Positions 1 through 52,226 of a stretch of 64,000 nucleotides of DNA are shown here, piece by piece. The notes under the pieces were generated by a model, which saw only the letters and a program-made list of their open reading frames with translations, did not search any database and had not been told where the DNA came from. The number at the start of each line of letters is the position of its first letter. Within the stretch, counting starts at the first letter, position 1. A program made the translations under genes and the position numbers. Source of the DNA: Escherichia coli (lineage in GTDB: Bacteria > Pseudomonadota > Gammaproteobacteria > Enterobacterales > Enterobacteriaceae); NCBI RefSeq assembly GCF_003018235.1, contig NZ_CP027437.1. One strand, 5' to 3'.

Positions 1-5730
<5,730 letters not shown>

Positions 5731-43631: not shown

Positions 43632-43662
43632 AGGCCCGATGGTGATGCCATCGGGCTATTTT
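43632..43662. terminator. bidirectional rho-independent terminator between ccmH and narP
   Basis: Hairpin GCCCGATGG-tgatg-CCATCGGGC flanked by A-run and T-run, between two convergent genes. Confidence 0.7.
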
Positions 43663-44309
43663 TATTGTGCCCCGCGTTGTTGCAGGAACAGAATGGTGGC
43701 CGCCACGCGTGAGCGGACATTGAGTTTACGCAGCAGATTGCGAATGTGTACTTTTACTGTCTGCTCGGAAATATTCAACACCGAGGCAATCTGTTTATTT
43801 GACAGCCCCTGTGCCAGCTCGTGCAGAACATCCAGCTCGCGCTCCGTCAGCACGCTGAAGGGATCTTCTTCTGCGCCAAACATTTCACGTTCACGTAAGT
43901 ACTGATTGACGCGTTCGCTAAAGACTTTGCTGCCTTTCGCTCCGGCACGAATCGCTTCCAGCAACACTTCCGGGTCGCTGTCTTTCAACAGATAACCGTC
44001 TGCGCCTGCGTCTATCAGCGCAAAGACATCGCTGGAGGCATCTGATACAGTCAGGATAATAATTTGCGCGGTAACGCCATCCCTGCGCAAGGCATTGAGG
44101 GTATCCAGGCCACTCATACCTTTCATATTGAGATCCAGCAAGATCACGTCGATATCCAGTCTATTCGCCAGATCGATCGCGCTCGCGCCGTCGCCCGCTT
44201 CGGCGACCACTTCAAAGCCAGGATCAAGCTCCAGTAACTGACGAACACCGCGTCGCATAAGTGGATGATCATCCACAATCATCACCTGAAAAGGCGTTGC
44301 TTCAGGCAT
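43662..44309 (-). CDS. narP: nitrate/nitrite response regulator NarP
   Basis: ORF 43662..44339; start placed at MPEATPFQVMIVDDHP (215 aa); receiver plus LuxR-type HTH. Confidence 0.9.
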   Translation of the reverse strand: MPEATPFQVMIVDDHPLMRRGVRQLLELDPGFEVVAEAGDGASAIDLANRLDIDVILLDLNMKGMSGLDTLNALRRDGVTAQIIILTVSDASSDVFALIDAGADGYLLKDSDPEVLLEAIRAGAKGSKVFSERVNQYLREREMFGAEEDPFSVLTERELDVLHELAQGLSNKQIASVLNISEQTVKVHIRNLLRKLNVRSRVAATILFLQQRGAQ

Positions 44310-44628
44310 AGTAGTCTCCTGAGGTTTTATTAGAATCATTATGTTTGAGCGTAGCGTTGGTAACGCTACCAGGCGCGTGAATGTTACCCCATTTTATGTA
44401 TGGACATGTAGCGAAAACTACAACCTTGTCGTTCGCTTTGGCATCATTTTCATTATAAAGACGGAATTTTGCATCAGCTTCTCATCAAGAAAAACAACTA
44501 AAAAATCAATCACAATACTTGTGCATTTCTTTAAACAGTTTTTAAAAACTGACTCCGGGTATGGAGCTATGGGTATTTTCTCTACCCAATGCTTTTAACA
44601 GCAATTAATTTCATAGGATGAAAGCTCA

Positions 44629-47220
44629 ATGCATCAATCTGGTTCTGTTTCTCTTTGTCGTTCCGCAATATCTGTTCTGGTGGCTACAGCGTTATATTCA
44701 CCCATAGCATTGGCATCAACAGTTGAGTATGGTGAGACAGTTGATGGTGTTGTCCTGGAAAAAGATATCCAGCTGGTTTATGGGACCGCCAATAATACGA
44801 AAATCAATCCTGGCGGAGAACAGCATATTAAAGAATTTGGTATAAGTAGTAATACTGAAATTAACGGCGGGTATCAGTACATTGAAATGAATGGCACCGC
44901 AGAATACTCAGTATTAAATGATGGTTATCAAATTGTTCAAATGGGTGGTGCGGCAAACCAGACTACCCTCAATAATGGTGTGCTACAGGTTTATGGCGCA
45001 GCGAATGATACTACCATTAAAGGCGGGCGCTTAATTATTGAAAAAGATGGGATTACCGTCTTTGCCGCTATCGAAAAGGGAGGATTACTGGAGGTTAAAG
45101 AGGGGGGGTTAGCATTTGCGGTAGATCAGAAAGCCGGCGGTGCTATTAAAACAACCACGCGGGCCATGGAGGTATTCGGAACAAACCGTCTCGGTCAGTT
45201 CGATATCAAGGATGGTATTGCTAATAATATGTTGTTGGAAAACGGCGGAAGTTTGCGAGTTGAAGAAAATGACTTCGCTTATAATACCACTGTGGATAAT
45301 GGCGGCTTACTGGAGGTTATGGATGGCGGGACTGCAACTGGCGTTGATAAAAAAGCAGGCGGAAAATTAATTGTCTCAACGAATGCGCTGGAAGTGAGTG
45401 GTACAAACAGTAAAGGCCAATTTAGTATAAAAGATGGTGTGTCCAAAAATTATGAACTGGATGATGGTTCCGGGCTCATTGTTATGGAGGACACGCAGGC
45501 CATTGACACTATCCTTGATGAGCATGCCACTATGCAATCGCTGGGAAAGGATACTGGTACGAGAGTGCAGGCAAATGCGGTATATGATCTCGGTCGATCA
45601 GATCAGAATGGAAGTATCACGTATTCCTCTAAAGCCATCTCTGAAAATATGGTTATCAACAATGGCCGCGCTAATGTCTGGGCTGGCACAATGGTTAACG
45701 TTTCAGTCAGAGGGAATGATGGCATTCTTGAGGTCATGAAGCCGCAAATAAATTATGCACCCGCTATGTTGGTGGGTAAGGTAGTGGTTTCTGAGGGCGC
45801 TTCTTTTAGAACGCATGGTGCCGTGGATACCAGCAAAGCGGATGTTTCGCTCGAAAATAGCGCATGGACCATCATTGCCGATATCACTACGACGAACCAA
45901 AACACTCGCCTCAACTTAGCCAACCTTGCGATGTCTGGCGCAAATGTGATTATGATGGCTGAGCCAGTGACTCGTTCATCTGTGACGGCAAGTGCGGAAA
46001 ATTTCACTACGTTGACCACCAATACCCTATCGGGAAACGGCAATTTTTATATGCGTACCGATATGGCTAATCATCAGAGCGATCAGCTCAACGTCACCGG
46101 TCAGGCAACAGGTGATTTCAAAATATTCGTTACGGACACCGGTGCCAGCCCGGCAGCAGGTGATAGCCTTACACTGGTAACAACGGGCGGCGGTGATGCT
46201 GCATTTACGTTGGGCAATGCCGGAGGCGTTGTTGATATCGGTACGTATGAATATACCTTGCTGGATAATGGCAACCATAGCTGGAGCCTCGCAGAGAATC
46301 GCGCGCAAATTACCCCTTCAACCACTGATGTGCTGAATATGGCGGCAGCACAACCGCTGGTATTTGATGCAGAACTGGACACCGTGCGTGAGCGTATTGG
46401 TAGCGTAAAAGGCGTTAATTACGATACGGCGATGTGGAGTTCGGCAATTAACACCCGCAACAACGTGACCACTGATGCGGGAGCTGGCTTTGAGCAAACA
46501 TTGACCGGGCTGACGCTCGGTATCGATAGCCGTTTCTCCCGTGAAGAAAGCAGCACAATTCGCGGCTTGTTCTTTGGTTACTCTCATTCTGATATTGGTT
46601 TTGATCGCGGCGGCAAAGGTAATATCGATAGCTATACCCTGGGGGCTTATGCTGGTTGGGAGCATCAGAACGGTGCCTATGTTGATGGGGTGGTGAAAGT
46701 TGACCGTTTTGCCAACACTATCCATGGCAAGATGAGTAATGGGGCAACAGCGTTTGGCGATTACAGTAGTAACGGCGCGGGTGCTCATGTCGAGAGCGGG
46801 TTCCGTTGGGTTGACGGATTGTGGAGTGTTAGACCCTATCTGGCCTTTACCGGCTTTACCACAGATGGTCAGGACTACACGTTATCAAACGGCATGCGCG
46901 CGGATGTGGGAAATACCCGCATATTACGCGCTGAAGCGGGAACAGCGGTAAGCTATCACATGGACCTGCAAAACGGTACGACGCTGGAACCCTGGCTGAA
47001 AGCCGCCGTACGTCAGGAATACGCCGATTCTAACCAGGTGAAAGTTAATGACGATGGCAAATTTAATAATGATGTGGCTGGAACCCGTGGCGTTTATCAG
47101 GCTGGGATAAGGTCATCGTTTACCCCGACGTTAAGCGGTCATTTGTCTGTCAGCTATGGCAATGGCGCAGGGGTAGAATCACCGTGGAATACTCAGGCGG
47201 GTGTGGTCTGGTCGTTCTGA
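44629..47220 (+). CDS. yejO: autotransporter adhesin-like protein YejO, apparently intact
   Basis: 863-aa ORF with signal peptide, repetitive passenger domain (G/N/T-rich repeats) and C-terminal beta-barrel ending in aromatic residue (VVWSF). Confidence 0.8.
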   Translation: MHQSGSVSLCRSAISVLVATALYSPIALASTVEYGETVDGVVLEKDIQLVYGTANNTKINPGGEQHIKEFGISSNTEINGGYQYIEMNGTAEYSVLNDGYQIVQMGGAANQTTLNNGVLQVYGAANDTTIKGGRLIIEKDGITVFAAIEKGGLLEVKEGGLAFAVDQKAGGAIKTTTRAMEVFGTNRLGQFDIKDGIANNMLLENGGSLRVEENDFAYNTTVDNGGLLEVMDGGTATGVDKKAGGKLIVSTNALEVSGTNSKGQFSIKDGVSKNYELDDGSGLIVMEDTQAIDTILDEHATMQSLGKDTGTRVQANAVYDLGRSDQNGSITYSSKAISENMVINNGRANVWAGTMVNVSVRGNDGILEVMKPQINYAPAMLVGKVVVSEGASFRTHGAVDTSKADVSLENSAWTIIADITTTNQNTRLNLANLAMSGANVIMMAEPVTRSSVTASAENFTTLTTNTLSGNGNFYMRTDMANHQSDQLNVTGQATGDFKIFVTDTGASPAAGDSLTLVTTGGGDAAFTLGNAGGVVDIGTYEYTLLDNGNHSWSLAENRAQITPSTTDVLNMAAAQPLVFDAELDTVRERIGSVKGVNYDTAMWSSAINTRNNVTTDAGAGFEQTLTGLTLGIDSRFSREESSTIRGLFFGYSHSDIGFDRGGKGNIDSYTLGAYAGWEHQNGAYVDGVVKVDRFANTIHGKMSNGATAFGDYSSNGAGAHVESGFRWVDGLWSVRPYLAFTGFTTDGQDYTLSNGMRADVGNTRILRAEAGTAVSYHMDLQNGTTLEPWLKAAVRQEYADSNQVKVNDDGKFNNDVAGTRGVYQAGIRSSFTPTLSGHLSVSYGNGAGVESPWNTQAGVVWSF

Positions 47221-47281: not shown

Positions 47282-47313
47282 AAAAAAACCAACCGCAAAG
47301 GTTGGTTTTTTTT
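47282..47313. terminator. rho-independent terminator after yejO
   Basis: A-run, hairpin CCAACC-gcaaa-GGTTGG, then T8, directly after the yejO stop. Confidence 0.75.
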
Positions 47314-47392
47314 GGGATTTTTGCACGAGAGTAGTTTAATTGAGTATGTAACTACATGATTTAAAATAATTTGTCTAATTCAACTTTTAAAC

Positions 47393-47417
47393 CGTATAAC
47401 CAAACGTATAACTAAAA
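47393..47417. repeat. CGTATAAC(TAAA) repeat pair at the yejO-proximal end of the island
   Basis: cCGTATAACcaaaCGTATAACTAAAA; the same motif recurs four times at 57463-57519 near the integrase. Confidence 0.6.
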
Positions 47418-47620
47418 TGATTTGCTGAAAAAGTGTACAATTTAAAGACAGATTTTCCCGGGGGTTATAAAACTGCGAAAATTTCGTAGTTATCCCGATA
47501 CGGGGATCACCATATCGGGATTGGATACCTGGCTTTTTTTCCGGTTAACTCTTAATCATCTGCGTGATCATAATGATGATTCAGCCAGCGCAATTTTGCG
47601 TTATCGGGAATATCAGCAAG

Positions 47621-47902
47621 TTACCGCCGTAACCGCTCCGGCTTCTTCCAGTGGTAGGTAATTTTTTCTTTCTCCCGATACATCTCCACGCGGCGCTTGT
47701 AGGCCAGCATTTCAAGAACGCGGATCCGTATGTCGCGCATATCCACATCATTAAGCTGGATACCATCACGGCGCATCACCTCAGCAACCACACACGCATA
47801 ATTTTCGGCGGTCACGCAGTCCGGCTGCGTAGCCTGTTCGTCAGCCTGCTGGCTGATTCCGGCAACTCGGCGGATTAATCGCAGTAGTTCGGCTTCTGTC
47901 AT
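47621..47902 (-). CDS. hypothetical protein, 93 aa, island-borne
   Basis: ORF from the supplied track, downstream (minus sense) of conserved repeat copy 1; no family recognised. Confidence 0.4.
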   Translation of the reverse strand: MTEAELLRLIRRVAGISQQADEQATQPDCVTAENYACVVAEVMRRDGIQLNDVDMRDIRIRVLEMLAYKRRVEMYREKEKITYHWKKPERLRR

Positions 47903-48063
47903 TGTGCCCCCTCGCGCTGGTTAAGAAAACAAGCTCAGATTTTTTGTAAAGAATCTGTCACGCTAAAAGATGTCGAACAAAAAACAATCACCTTCATCAT
48001 CTTTTTTACATAAAAACAATTAAAAACAATAATTTACATACATGATGATGATGGCGATAAAAT

Positions 48064-48140
48064 CATAAAAATGCGCTTTTTTCCGCGCCGACCCGCCCCG
48101 TGGACAGGCCCACCCCACCAGGAGGACCCGCAAAAAAGGC
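48064..48140. repeat. conserved GC-rich element of about 65 bp, copy 1 (abuts the capsid-gene terminator)
   Basis: TGCGCTTTTTTCCGCGCCGACCCGCCCCGTGGAcaggCCCACCccACCAGGAGGACCCgCAAAAAAG, about 85% identical to 50604-50690 by eye. Confidence 0.6.
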
Positions 48141-48169
48141 GGCATATTTGCCGCCCTGTAAACTGTGTA

Positions 48170-50065
48170 TCAGCCGGAAGCCGTACCGCTCGATTTGACC
48201 ATGCCGCGATAGTCCAGCGCGGCCACACCGGCATCAATACGAACCTTCCAGGCGACACCGTCAACGATGAAGCCTTCCTGCTGTTCAAGGTAAGGCTCGT
48301 CATTACCATCAAGATAAGCCACCTCGATTGTGTCCGTTCCCTGTGCTGAAAGCATGTACCATTGATTCACACTAACATCATCCAGACGAGGATCGACAAT
48401 AATATCCAGTAGCTTGTGATACGGGTTAAATATGCCGCTGTTTTTATCGGCCCCGAAAGGTGCGGTTGAATTAATCATTTGCAACGCGCGATCTTCCAGT
48501 GCTGCCGGAACTAACAGGAATTTAGGTGCAATGTTCAGCACCTCGCCGTTTTTATCTTTCTGTATGCGCATAGCGTGACGTGCTGCACTAAGCCCCGGCG
48601 TCGTCATGCCAAGATCGATAAGGTTGTTGTGTTTTTTATCAAACAAGGCCACACCATCAGACAGCTTGCCGTTTCCTGTAAGTACCAGATTAACCAGATT
48701 GCCAACCGTTCTGGCTGCTGCACGCCCCATAGCCATTGGCACGGTAGACAACTGATCAAGGTCATCATTGATTATCGCCTGGCGGGTAATACTGAAAATA
48801 TTCCCGTATGTAGCCAGCGCGATTGGCTCACCGCGATCGCTGGTGGTGATGTATTTATATTCTGCCCCTTCCGGCACTTTGTTTAATGTTGAAAAACCAT
48901 TCAGGCCAACGCGGCGGGCTTCACGGAAGTTTGACAGAGAACCTTTTTTAGTCCACTGGCGGAATGTTTCGCCGCTGTGCTCCCAGCCTGCCAGCACTGA
49001 TTTTTCAGCGCCACCAGCCAGGATGTAAGTAAAATCGCTGCTGCTGTGAGTGAATGCCGCATTAACAATCTGCGAACGCGTGCTGTAGCTGCCTGTGCTT
49101 ATGCCACGATGGGTTAATGATGCCTGTGCCATATCGAAAAGGCTCATCATGGCGTAAGGATTGCCGCGTTCGGCCTGTTCGTGACCAAGACGTGCGTTAA
49201 GCCCCTGACGCATGGCATCGCCGGTTATGTTGCCGTTATCCGTATACGCGTAGTAAAGATTTGCGGGGGTGTTTTTGTTGGTGGGTGTCGATTCCTTGCC
49301 CATAGCCAATAAAAGGCGTTCGCGCGCATCCTCAACGCTACAACCTGCGTCTGCCAGGCAGTTAATAGCCAGGTCGTTATATTTCCCGTTGAACGTGCCA
49401 AACAATTCGCGAATGCCGTTTAGTCGTTCCTGTTCGCCGCTGGCTTTGTTCTGGTTGATCATGTTTTTGATACTTTCCGGCATATTTGAAAAATCTCCGA
49501 TTCGTTTTGATTCAATTCTGGCCATTGCTGTAATCGCGGGTATAACCTCATCTGCGAAGCCGTTAGCCTTACACTCATTGCCATCCATCCAGGTTTCCGC
49601 CTCCATCATGGCGGTGATTTCCTGTTTGCTTTTTCCCGTTCTTCCGGCGTAGGTTTCCGCCATCGTGTCGCCCAGCTTGTCCATCAGGTCAGCAAAGCGG
49701 CGAACGTCGCCCGACACGCCAGAAGTAACACCACGGGGGGCATGTATCATCATCATTGCGTTAGCGGGCATCACGATGTGATCGCCACACATGGCAATAA
49801 ACGAGGCCATAGAAGCCGCTATGCCTTCAATGTGTACGATTTTTTTCGCCGGATGATTTTTCAGGGCGTTATAGATAGCCAGCCCCTGAAAGATGTCGCC
49901 GCCTGGTGAATGGATACGCAAATGGATTTCAGACACGTCACCACACGCGCTTATCTGGTCGGTTAATGTTGACGCCTGTACACCGTAACCGCCTATTTCG
50001 TCATAAATGCGAACGTGAAGGGCGTCGGCTTTTGCCTGTATGCTGTACCAGGATTTCATAGCCAT
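48170..50065 (-). CDS. phage prohead protease (ClpP/S49-like) fused to HK97-fold major capsid protein, 631 aa
   Basis: N-terminal part resembles ClpP-type head maturation proteases (HSPGGDIFQGLAIYNAL ... ASMASFIAMCGD); C-terminal part resembles HK97-family major capsid proteins. Assignment by sequence resemblance from memory. Confidence 0.65.
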   Translation of the reverse strand: MAMKSWYSIQAKADALHVRIYDEIGGYGVQASTLTDQISACGDVSEIHLRIHSPGGDIFQGLAIYNALKNHPAKKIVHIEGIAASMASFIAMCGDHIVMPANAMMMIHAPRGVTSGVSGDVRRFADLMDKLGDTMAETYAGRTGKSKQEITAMMEAETWMDGNECKANGFADEVIPAITAMARIESKRIGDFSNMPESIKNMINQNKASGEQERLNGIRELFGTFNGKYNDLAINCLADAGCSVEDARERLLLAMGKESTPTNKNTPANLYYAYTDNGNITGDAMRQGLNARLGHEQAERGNPYAMMSLFDMAQASLTHRGISTGSYSTRSQIVNAAFTHSSSDFTYILAGGAEKSVLAGWEHSGETFRQWTKKGSLSNFREARRVGLNGFSTLNKVPEGAEYKYITTSDRGEPIALATYGNIFSITRQAIINDDLDQLSTVPMAMGRAAARTVGNLVNLVLTGNGKLSDGVALFDKKHNNLIDLGMTTPGLSAARHAMRIQKDKNGEVLNIAPKFLLVPAALEDRALQMINSTAPFGADKNSGIFNPYHKLLDIIVDPRLDDVSVNQWYMLSAQGTDTIEVAYLDGNDEPYLEQQEGFIVDGVAWKVRIDAGVAALDYRGMVKSSGTASG

Positions 50066-50250
50066 GCCCCTAACGTGTGCCCATACCAGTACTCTACCGC
50101 GCTGCGTGCAATTTGCCCTTTGGTCGGTACTGGCATTCCTGGGTGATTTTCCCTTATGAACTGCTGATAGCGTTCAATCTTCTCCATCGTTCCGGCGTCT
50201 ATGTGCACTGTTGCGCTTTTATCCGGTTTTCTGGTGTTGTTCTCTGGCAT
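50056..50250 (-). CDS. hypothetical small protein (64 aa from the internal ATG with GGAGG RBS), upstream of and overlapping the capsid gene
   Basis: ORF 50056..50283; ACGGAGG sits 8 nt upstream of the ATG at 50250. Confidence 0.4.
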   Translation of the reverse strand: MPENNTRKPDKSATVHIDAGTMEKIERYQQFIRENHPGMPVPTKGQIARSAVEYWYGHTLGAWL

Positions 50251-50444
50251 AAATCCGCCTCCGTTTTGATTAACGGGCATCATTATTGATCGATAAAAGT
50301 AATAGATAAATCATTTTCTACCTAAAAATCAGATTATGATTTTTCTGATTATTTCGAGAAAAGCAAATCATTTGACGCATTATTGCTATTTTGGCAATAT
50401 TAAGTCTCATTCATTCCGGTAGTAGAAGTTCGTTTGTCGTACTA

Positions 50445-50481
50445 AAGCGCCTCCGGTAGCACCATCGGGGGCGCTTTTTTT
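50445..50481 (+). terminator. orphan plus-strand rho-independent terminator inside the island
   Basis: GCGCCTCCGG-tagcaccat-CGGGGGCGC followed by T7; there is no plus-strand ORF upstream of it. Confidence 0.45.
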
Positions 50482-50603
50482 GTGCCTGTTTTTTTTGTAA
50501 ATATTTTCGGGAATGTTCCAGTGGTGAACAAAAAACAACCATAATCGACACTGAAATTTTTATCAGCCAAATATATCAATAAGTTATGTTAGTGGTGATG
50601 GTG

Positions 50604-50690
50604 CCATAAAAATCAAAAAATGCGCCTTTTTCCGCGCCGACCCGCCCCGTGGATGCCCCCACCAACCAGGAGGACCCACAAAAAAGCCGG
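50604..50690. repeat. conserved GC-rich element of about 65 bp, copy 2 (abuts the terminator of the int2/PerC-like unit)
   Basis: TGCGCCTTTTTCCGCGCCGACCCGCCCCGTGGAtgccCCCACCaaCCAGGAGGACCCaCAAAAAAG; the adjacent hairpin differs between the two copies but the block is conserved. Confidence 0.6.
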
Positions 50691-50708
50691 ATTGCTCCGG
50701 CTGTGTGC

Positions 50709-50984
50709 TCACTTCTGCGGGTAGTTGCGCCATACTGCTTTACCAATACCAGCTATCCCCATTTGTTTTTCAGTGCGATTAACTGACCTTTTCAGAGCGC
50801 CTAAATCATCCGGCGGCTCCGGTGGCCTCTGTGCCTTCCTGGAACATTCCTGCCGTCGCATTGCCACCTGTGCGCGTTCCTTGTCTGTCTCCACCAGCAT
50901 CATCACTTCACCCCATCGCGCCGCCGCCCTCCTGTAAAATCCTTTCGCCTCGAGTTCCTCCGCTATACGGTCATGTACCATCAT
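50709..50984 (-). CDS. small regulatory protein, possibly PerC family, 91 aa
   Basis: N-terminal IAEELEAKGFYRRAAARW resembles the PerC/Pch motif as I recall it; overlaps the int2 stop by 4 bp. Family call is tentative. Confidence 0.4.
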   Translation of the reverse strand: MMVHDRIAEELEAKGFYRRAAARWGEVMMLVETDKERAQVAMRRQECSRKAQRPPEPPDDLGALKRSVNRTEKQMGIAGIGKAVWRNYPQK

Positions 50985-51994
50985 TCACCACCTCCCGCAG
51001 ATGGCGATAAGCTGGCTTTGCCTCCAAGTGGATTAAACCTTATCGCCTCTGTCAGAAAATCCGGCGCAAAATGCGCGTAAACCATTGTCTGTTGTATGCT
51101 CGCGTGCCCCAGTATCCTTTGCAGTGTGATTATATTCCCCCCGTTCATCATGAAATGTGTCGCGAATGTGTGCCGTAATACGTGGGTGGCCTGGCCTTTT
51201 GGTAAGTCCGGTTTTACTGACTTGATGACCTCCCTGAACTCCAGATAATCCACATCAAACAACTGTCCCTTTTTACCTCTCGTTACAAGTTCCAGAACGT
51301 CATCAGACACCGGAACAGCTCGCGCCCGTCCGTTCTTCGTCTCCGTAAACATTACCTTGTTACTGACTATATTTTCCCGTCGTAGCGTCGATGACTCCCC
51401 ATAACGCGCCCCCGTCGAAAGACACAAAACAGCCAGCGCGAGACAGTCGCCTTTGGCAATATTCAGTAAATGATTAACCTCATCATCACCAAGAAAACTC
51501 ATAGCCTTGTTTGGTGCTTTCAGCTTGCGTAATCCACTCAAAGGGTTTTCACCGTGATACATACCGCATTCGATTAGCCCCCTGAACATTCCTGATATAA
51601 CCGACAAATCACGGTTAACAGTCAACGGACTAAGGCCGCATCCCAGCTTGTCGGCTCTGTATTCCATGAGCATTGCGCGGGTTATGTTGCAGATTCGTGG
51701 ATCCCCCATTTCACGGATAACCTTCATCATGCGCATAAACGATTGTTCGCCGTATTCCTCCGATCTTCCGATAAACTCCATCCATAAGTTAGCCAGATCA
51801 GATAACAGGCGAATATCTGCGGCGCGTGACTCCCAGGGCTTATTATGACAATGAAGCAGTATGTATTTTTCGTAATCACGGGCTTTTGTCTGCGAGGGAA
51901 AAATCTTTCTTATCCGTCGCCCGTAAGCGCCATTTGGCCTTACGTCAACCAGCCAGCGACCATCCTCACACTTCCTTATCGCCATGCTCCACAC
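50981..51994 (-). CDS. tyrosine site-specific integrase/recombinase, 337 aa (second integrase in the island)
   Basis: C-terminal catalytic region with HVLRHTFATHFMMNGGNIITLQRILGHASIQQTMVYAHF (R..HxxR..Y signature); size is typical of P2-type integrases. Confidence 0.8.
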   Translation of the reverse strand: MWSMAIRKCEDGRWLVDVRPNGAYGRRIRKIFPSQTKARDYEKYILLHCHNKPWESRAADIRLLSDLANLWMEFIGRSEEYGEQSFMRMMKVIREMGDPRICNITRAMLMEYRADKLGCGLSPLTVNRDLSVISGMFRGLIECGMYHGENPLSGLRKLKAPNKAMSFLGDDEVNHLLNIAKGDCLALAVLCLSTGARYGESSTLRRENIVSNKVMFTETKNGRARAVPVSDDVLELVTRGKKGQLFDVDYLEFREVIKSVKPDLPKGQATHVLRHTFATHFMMNGGNIITLQRILGHASIQQTMVYAHFAPDFLTEAIRFNPLGGKASLSPSAGGGE

Positions 51995-52226
51995 CCTTAA
52001 CGTTGATGGTTGTTACCTGTTCCGCTTCGGCTATCTCCCGTTCGGTCAGCGTGGCAAAGTTTGCCGCCGCTGTGGTCATGAATGCGCTTATCAGTTCGGG
52101 ATGTGCTTTCGCGTATCCTTCTCCCGTGTTGCGGTCTATCGTTCTGATTGCCACCTTTAAGGCGTGCTCTGTCATGTCTAATGCGCGATATTTTGGCGCT
52201 GCCTTATCTCTGGTTTTTCTGGTCAT
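51966..52226 (-). CDS. hypothetical small protein, 86 aa
   Basis: ORF between the replication ATPase and int2, overlapping the int2 start; no family recognised. Confidence 0.35.
   Translation of the reverse strand: MTRKTRDKAAPKYRALDMTEHALKVAIRTIDRNTGEGYAKAHPELISAFMTTAAANFATLTEREIAEAEQVTTINVKGVEHGDKEV

Follow-up and report, generated by a model that had tools for sequence, protein, structure and literature searches.

The 64,000-nucleotide stretch of Escherichia coli DNA analyzed here (contig NZ_CP027437.1; the whole stretch is called the window) carries yejO on its plus strand at 44629-47220, and we are confident that this is an ordinary, intact chromosomal copy of the gene, coding for a type Va autotransporter. 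In the list of open reading frames (ORFs) of the window, the interval is a single ATG-to-TGA frame of 863 codons plus the TGA, and the Prokaryotic Genome Annotation Pipeline (PGAP) puts the same start in other genomes. The uninterrupted 863-residue product claimed by an initial annotation of the bare sequence is thus exactly what lies at these positions. On the 5′ side of yejO are ccmF, dsbE, and ccmH on the plus strand and narP at 43662-44339 on the minus strand. On the 3′ side, past an inserted element of about 10.3 kb, is the sole tRNA gene of the window, tRNA-Pro(GGG) (proL; 57650-57726, minus strand). The window therefore reads ccmH-narP-yejO-(island)-tRNA-Pro-yejM, with yejO in its conserved position between narP and proL; the same order was seen in K-12 and nine other genomes. 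The exact window protein is already present in NCBI and UniRef under the name “autotransporter YejO,” on 148 contigs, and the 90%-identity cluster that holds it has 16,859 members. Judged by position, length, identity, and database name, which all agree, the window gene belongs to the YejO ortholog group, and the gene name given to it earlier stands. About 10 ORFs of 65 to 156 residues overlap yejO on both strands, and an 85-residue ORF (44341-44598, plus strand) fills the narP-yejO intergenic region; all of these are assumed to be spurious.

In K-12, yejO is a pseudogene with IS5 near its start (PMC11005336; PMC11677980). This concurs with our own comparison and with the disruption by an insertion sequence (IS) that the initial annotation gave for K-12. 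BLAST junctions place an IS5 of 1,195 bp in yejO of the K-12 derivative MC4100 at about codon 22; the insert begins GGAAGGTGCG... and is flanked by duplicated TTAT. In the PGAP annotation, the MC4100 locus consists of a 23-codon N-terminal fragment, the transposase of IS5, and a yejO pseudogene truncated at its N-terminal end. When IS5 and one TTAT are excised, the 863-residue ORF is restored, and its product is identical to the window protein at 837 of 863 positions (97.0%), without gaps. Because this match to K-12 YejO is gapless from end to end, the window gene is without internal deletion or truncation. The window protein was also gapless against seven other intact 863-residue alleles, so the deletion or truncation relative to homologs that might have undone the claim of an intact gene was not found. 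K-12 YejO (b2190) thus has the same locus, narP-yejO-proL, and the same 863 residues after IS5 removal; the window copy differs from it in having no IS5, in 26 changed residues, and in the 10.3-kb element before proL. The TTAT that serves as the IS5 target site in K-12 is unoccupied in the window, at 44692-44695 on the plus strand. In the MC4100 sequence (locus L001), the two TTAT copies are at 3353-3356 and 4552-4555; IS5 is usually said to target sites of the CTAA/CTAG type (PMC11677980), with which TTAT disagrees.

The protein begins with a predicted Sec-type signal peptide, residues 1 to 29 (44629-44715; this and all other features of YejO given below are on the plus strand), assigned from hydropathy, from a manual rule for the n-, h-, and c-regions, and from disorder in the AlphaFold2 model described below. 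Its n-region is MHQSGSVSLCR (with R11), its hydrophobic core is SAISVLVATALY (residues 12 to 23), and its c-region is SPIALA. Hydropathy peaks at 2.15 over residues 12 to 22, and cleavage is predicted before S30, with A-L-A at −3/−1. The passenger domain, residues 30 to about 560 (44716-46308), is predicted to be a right-handed β-helix of short strands, on the strength of the model and of structure and sequence matches in the PDB. Near its N-terminal end, residues 49 to 142 (44773-45054) form AIDA-type rung repeats of about 19 residues, visible as a 19-residue register and matched by the NCBIfam strand-loop-strand repeat TIGR04415 (3 stretches, 66.7 bits versus a cutoff of 30). A tandem duplication follows at 45073-45510, with a unit of 74 residues, or about four rungs. 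A self-BLAST of the protein for internal repeats returned the diagonal only; a targeted local alignment then revealed the duplication, with 37 of 72 residues identical between residues 149 to 220 and 223 to 294 (score of 179, versus 29.8 ± 6.4 for shuffles). Identity between the two units is 51% at the protein level and 55% at the DNA level, and their longest in-register identical run is 13 nt. AIDA repeats of Pfam (PF16168) were found in two stretches (E value, 7e-51), also in support of the duplication. The repetitive passenger described in the initial annotation is therefore there, in the form of rungs plus a duplication.

Toward the C-terminal end of the passenger, a pertactin-like junction, or autochaperone region, covers residues 431 to 555 (45919-46293; PF03212, E value of 7.5e-45) and was modeled with a predicted local distance difference test score (pLDDT) mostly above 90. 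Residues 563 to 592 (46315-46404) are predicted to be an α-helical linker lying in the barrel pore, and residues 600 to 863 (46426-47217) a 12-stranded outer membrane β-barrel. The autotransporter β-domain PF03797 matches residues 602 to 841 (E value, 6e-45), the NCBIfam model TIGR01414 matches residues 456 to 863 (E value of 1.4e-110; 370 bits versus a cutoff of 16), and the protein ends in an aromatic β-signal, ...VVWSF. The features of type Va autotransporters that can be tested in sequence, namely, a Sec signal, a helix, a junction with a β-helix, and a barrel, are all predicted for YejO.

A structure model agrees with this layout. The AlphaFold2 model, built on an alignment of 68 sequences found by searching 1.84 billion representative proteins, has a mean pLDDT of 86.6 and a predicted template modeling score (pTM) of 0.70. 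Residues 1 to 28 are disordered (pLDDT below 50), and the first strand starts at residue 30. The passenger is all β, in short strands, and the only helix in the model is the linker at residues 563 to 592. Twelve long strands follow at residues 600 to 862, with pLDDT values of 92 to 98. In a Foldseek search of the PDB, the passenger matched Ag43 (7koh and 7ko9; E values of about 1e-18), pertactin (1dab), and TibA (4q1q). The C-terminal unit matched the BrkA β-domain (3qq2) with a target template modeling (TM) score of 0.90 to 0.91 and a root mean square deviation of 2.4 to 3.2 Å, and it also matched EspP, Hbp, NalP, and the AIDA-I transport unit. The predicted barrel and helix align as one unit with the EspP, BrkA, and NalP translocators, and this unit superposes on those of BrkA and EspP. 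A PDB search by sequence gave the same relatives: Ag43, TibA, and Vag8. As modeled, YejO is built like a classical type Va autotransporter whose β-helix is of the adhesin type. The signal peptide and β-barrel predictions that had been proposed as a check thus both came out positive, the former by rule and the latter by domain and model; the C-terminal barrel claimed earlier is also supported by the fold match to BrkA.

Comparison of alleles indicates that yejO is under purifying selection where it is intact. By the Nei-Gojobori method, the ratio of nonsynonymous to synonymous substitution rates (dN/dS) of the window gene versus the K-12 allele is 0.19; taken separately, the passenger gives 0.24 and the C-terminal part 0.12. 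Intact alleles compared in 33 pairs likewise have a mean dN over mean dS of 0.19 (range, 0.08 to 0.41), and the length is exactly 863 codons in eight independent alleles. Purifying selection on intact alleles argues against the window copy being a relic that has simply not yet been broken.

How unusual is an intact copy? The initial annotation implied that it was noteworthy, and this did not hold up. A match to the locus was found in 5,424 of 5,426 complete E. coli genomes; it is at least 80% covered in 4,281, and coverage is below 80% in about 21%. The K-12 yejO/IS5 junction, searched with an 80-nt probe, is at least 80% covered in only 357 of the 5,426, and most of the best 12 of these 357 are K-12 laboratory strains by name or isolates derived in the laboratory. 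Nine full-length, IS-free alleles were inspected, from an evenly spaced sample of genomes. Seven of them, including those of O157:H7 and E. coli B, encode an intact 863-residue protein, 96.9 to 99.0% identical to window YejO and gapless. With so few alleles sampled, the share of complete E. coli genomes that have intact yejO can be put only roughly, at a little more than one-half. The estimate agrees with the literature: yejO was found in all commensal and diarrheagenic genomes and truncated in all uropathogenic E. coli (UPEC), according to Wells et al. 2010 as relayed in PMC3426408, and it was reported missing from sequence type 131 (ST131) (PMC5654935). The pattern of intact and truncated genes across pathotypes was therefore published before, as far as the relayed account of Wells et al. 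goes. An intact copy is not unusual and K-12 is the exception; intact is the majority state, and the exact window protein had already been deposited and named.

The other alleles show several ways in which the gene is altered. The remaining two of the nine sampled alleles (L005, from 2015C-3121, and L008, from giraffe isolate A11) begin with ATT in place of ATG and have a stop at codon 789. These two genomes look unrelated yet share both lesions (yejO at 490-3081 in these loci). The ATT-start plus stop-789 form is a circulating pseudogene allele, and gene calls on it are the probable source of the 771-residue database proteins (P0016, and P0012 by length). E. coli DSM 103263 (L013, 490-2859) has a 789-residue allele missing nucleotides 502 to 723, in frame, which correspond to window positions 45130-45351. 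The missing segment is exactly one 74-codon repeat period, and this indicates, at the level of sequence, copy number variation of the passenger repeat. Among genomes with low coverage, R13 and APEC 102026 carry deletion remnants of about 0.8 to 0.9 kb, annotated as pseudogenes, and deletions of about 1.7 kb in yejO are found in UPEC/B2-type genomes.

The signals around the gene are modest. The narP-yejO intergenic region (44340-44628, plus strand), the presumed promoter and 5′ untranslated region, is 37% GC, with a weak Shine-Dalgarno sequence, AGGA, about 10 nt before the ATG. Control by NarP or NarL, which the adjacent narP would suggest, gained no support: the best 7-2-7 site in this region has at least three mismatches, and there is only one isolated heptamer. 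Such control is nonetheless possible. A search for known RNA elements in the 5′ region or nearby gave the tRNA as the only Rfam match. Downstream, a terminator scan placed a strong intrinsic terminator at 47282-47312 (plus strand), with a 13-bp stem followed by a T-run. It folds at −16 kcal/mol (z = −4.2), 0 of 200 shuffles fold as well, and it is conserved in K-12. Probably, yejO is expressed at a low level or only under certain conditions.

What is established about type Va secretion suggests the path that YejO would take. The 29-residue signal peptide would direct the protein across the inner membrane through Sec. The barrel assembly machinery (BAM) would then insert the 12-stranded barrel in the outer membrane, the linker helix lying inside the pore. 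The passenger would thread out C-terminal end first and fold on the surface as a right-handed β-helix, nucleated by the pertactin-like junction. Once exposed, the Ag43/AIDA-like β-helix would most likely serve as an adhesin or aggregation factor. What the analysis itself establishes is the integrity of the gene, its domain architecture and predicted fold, its orthology with K-12 yejO, purifying selection on it, and its frequency in the population; we infer secretion, surface display, adhesion, and any expression from the parts of the protein together with what is known of type Va systems.

Whether the window strain expresses yejO, and whether the product serves there as an adhesin, is a narrower question, and we would put the chances of both just short of even. 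That the gene may be functional, as had been suggested, fits its intact predicted signal peptide, the β-helix plus barrel model, and the dN/dS of about 0.19. Several points weigh on the other side. A consensus scan gave no sigma-70 promoter in the upstream region at its threshold; K-12 yejO, one of the least often detected genes, was seen in 106 of 3,376 RNA-Seq sets, ranking 4501st in detection frequency (PMC10392735); and the literature that could be searched yielded no experiment on the function of YejO, but only its use as a neutral Keio control, IS5 studies, prevalence statements, and lists. The signal peptide, moreover, was assigned by a manual rule, not by a trained predictor, and independent inactivation in several lineages implies that yejO is dispensable in many settings. 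The promoter scan and the RNA-Seq ranking would also be consistent with an ORF that is intact but cryptic, silent in most or all conditions, for instance, through a weak promoter or H-NS silencing of an AT-rich 5′ end. The start of the gene is indeed AT rich: positions 44500-44999, which take in the first 370 nt of yejO, are about 39% GC, as against 51.5% for the whole window, and the upstream region is lower still. Several autotransporter and fimbrial adhesin genes of K-12 are cryptic and H-NS repressed. The RNA-Seq figures concern the IS5-disrupted K-12 copy, however, and are thus indirect evidence, and a dN/dS of about 0.19 over intact alleles implies that the protein is produced and has an effect often enough to come under selection. 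We take a cryptic or conditionally expressed yejO as a serious possibility; fully cryptic yejO seems to us quite conceivable, if below an even chance.

The repeated loss of the gene can be read in two further ways. In one, yejO is a relic that is being lost, intact in the window only for want, so far, of a disabling mutation and with no current function. Independent losses (IS5 in 357 genomes, the ATT plus stop-789 allele of L005 and L008, the 0.8- to 0.9-kb remnants in R13 and APEC 102026), the 21% of genomes with low coverage, and the reported truncation in UPEC and absence from ST131 would all fit. Neutral decay would not, however, give dN/dS values of 0.08 to 0.41, with each intact pair far under 1, or a barrel value smaller than that of the passenger, nor is it what the constant 863-codon length across eight alleles points to; we consider a relic quite improbable. 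In the other, inactivation is not neutral: YejO would be kept by purifying selection in intestinal and commensal lineages, that of the window among them, and lost adaptively in extraintestinal ones as an “anti-virulence” surface antigen, and the window allele would be a functional gut colonization adhesin. The loss events behind this idea are IS5, the lost start plus stop-789, the 1.7-kb deletions, and the loss of one 74-residue repeat. We regard it as unlikely. Finally, type Va passengers are functionally diverse in general, and the YejO passenger might have another activity (protease, lipase, or toxin), as in the serine protease autotransporters of Enterobacteriaceae (SPATE) or EstA-type autotransporters, in place of adhesion. 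There are weak PDB matches to IgA1 protease and Hap, confined to the junction region. In contrast, the entire passenger consists of β-helix repeats nearest to the adhesins Ag43, TibA, and AIDA, and Pfam and NCBIfam scans found no catalytic domain in YejO, whether peptidase S6/S8, lipase, or any other. On the latter basis, an enzymatic passenger was rejected, and we hold a nonadhesin activity of this kind to be very improbable.

The 10.3-kb integrative element lies between the yejO terminator and the tRNA-Pro gene (proL), at 47323-57649, with all of its genes on the minus strand. It is bounded by an exact 9-bp core, GCACGAGAG, found at 47323 and, in the tRNA 3′ end, at 57656. It encodes a fusion of a ClpP-like prohead protease and a major capsid protein (48170-50065), a RepA-type helicase/primase (52428-53828), two integrases (50981-51994 and 56190-57449), an activator-like protein, and a repressor-like protein, and it has the look of a P4-like phage satellite, perhaps a composite one. 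It is at least 80% covered in only 1 of the 5,426 complete genomes (SCU-111), with partial matches in 1,964. The left attachment (att) copy is degenerate, with 14 of 17 positions matching (47314-47339 versus 57641-57672), and it is without the 5 nt GGTCG of the tRNA 3′ end, which in K-12 are present between GGGATTTTT and GCACGAGAG. Such a left att is not what simple integration at the tRNA 3′ end would leave behind; it may go back to previous integrations and excisions at this hotspot.

That the window carries an intact yejO is in itself of little consequence; our result corrects the impression that such a copy is special. What emerges is an uncharacterized, selectively maintained, predicted surface protein of Ag43/AIDA-like type that has been lost independently in several lineages. 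A strain with intact yejO, such as the window strain, would be a suitable start for a first functional study.

Among known systems, the closest solved matches to the junction and barrel are type Va autotransporters of Bordetella: BrkA, Vag8, and pertactin. The BrkA β-domain fits as described above, and barrel identity is about 22%. Vag8 aligns with residues 384 to 862 of YejO (E value, 6e-36), and pertactin shares the Pertactin domain. The N-terminal passengers of these three Bordetella proteins, their host, and their biology are unrelated to those of YejO. The nearer kin by passenger are Ag43 (Flu/Cah), AIDA-I, and TibA, self-associating type Va proteins that, like YejO as predicted, have a β-helix of AIDA-type rungs of about 19 residues. 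Ag43 (7koh) is the best passenger match, with an E value of 1.5e-37 by sequence as well as the Foldseek match already given, at an identity of about 20%. Ag43 has upstream GATC sites for Dam and OxyR, and AIDA-I and TibA have an adjacent heptosyltransferase gene. YejO is unlike Ag43 in having no phase variation sites of the GATC/OxyR type upstream; GATC is absent from the 289 nt upstream of the ORF and from its first 300 nt, and Ag43-like phase variation was ruled out on this ground. It is unlike AIDA-I and TibA in that no glycosyltransferase gene adjoins it, its neighbors being narP and the phage satellite-like element. YejO scores 135.4 bits against the Ag43/Cah model NF033177 and 70.5 bits against the AIDA-I model NF033176, both with a cutoff of 1,200; membership in either family was ruled out, since these scores are far below the curated equivalog cutoffs. 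YejO is thus a relative of the Ag43, AIDA-I, and TibA families, not a member of them.

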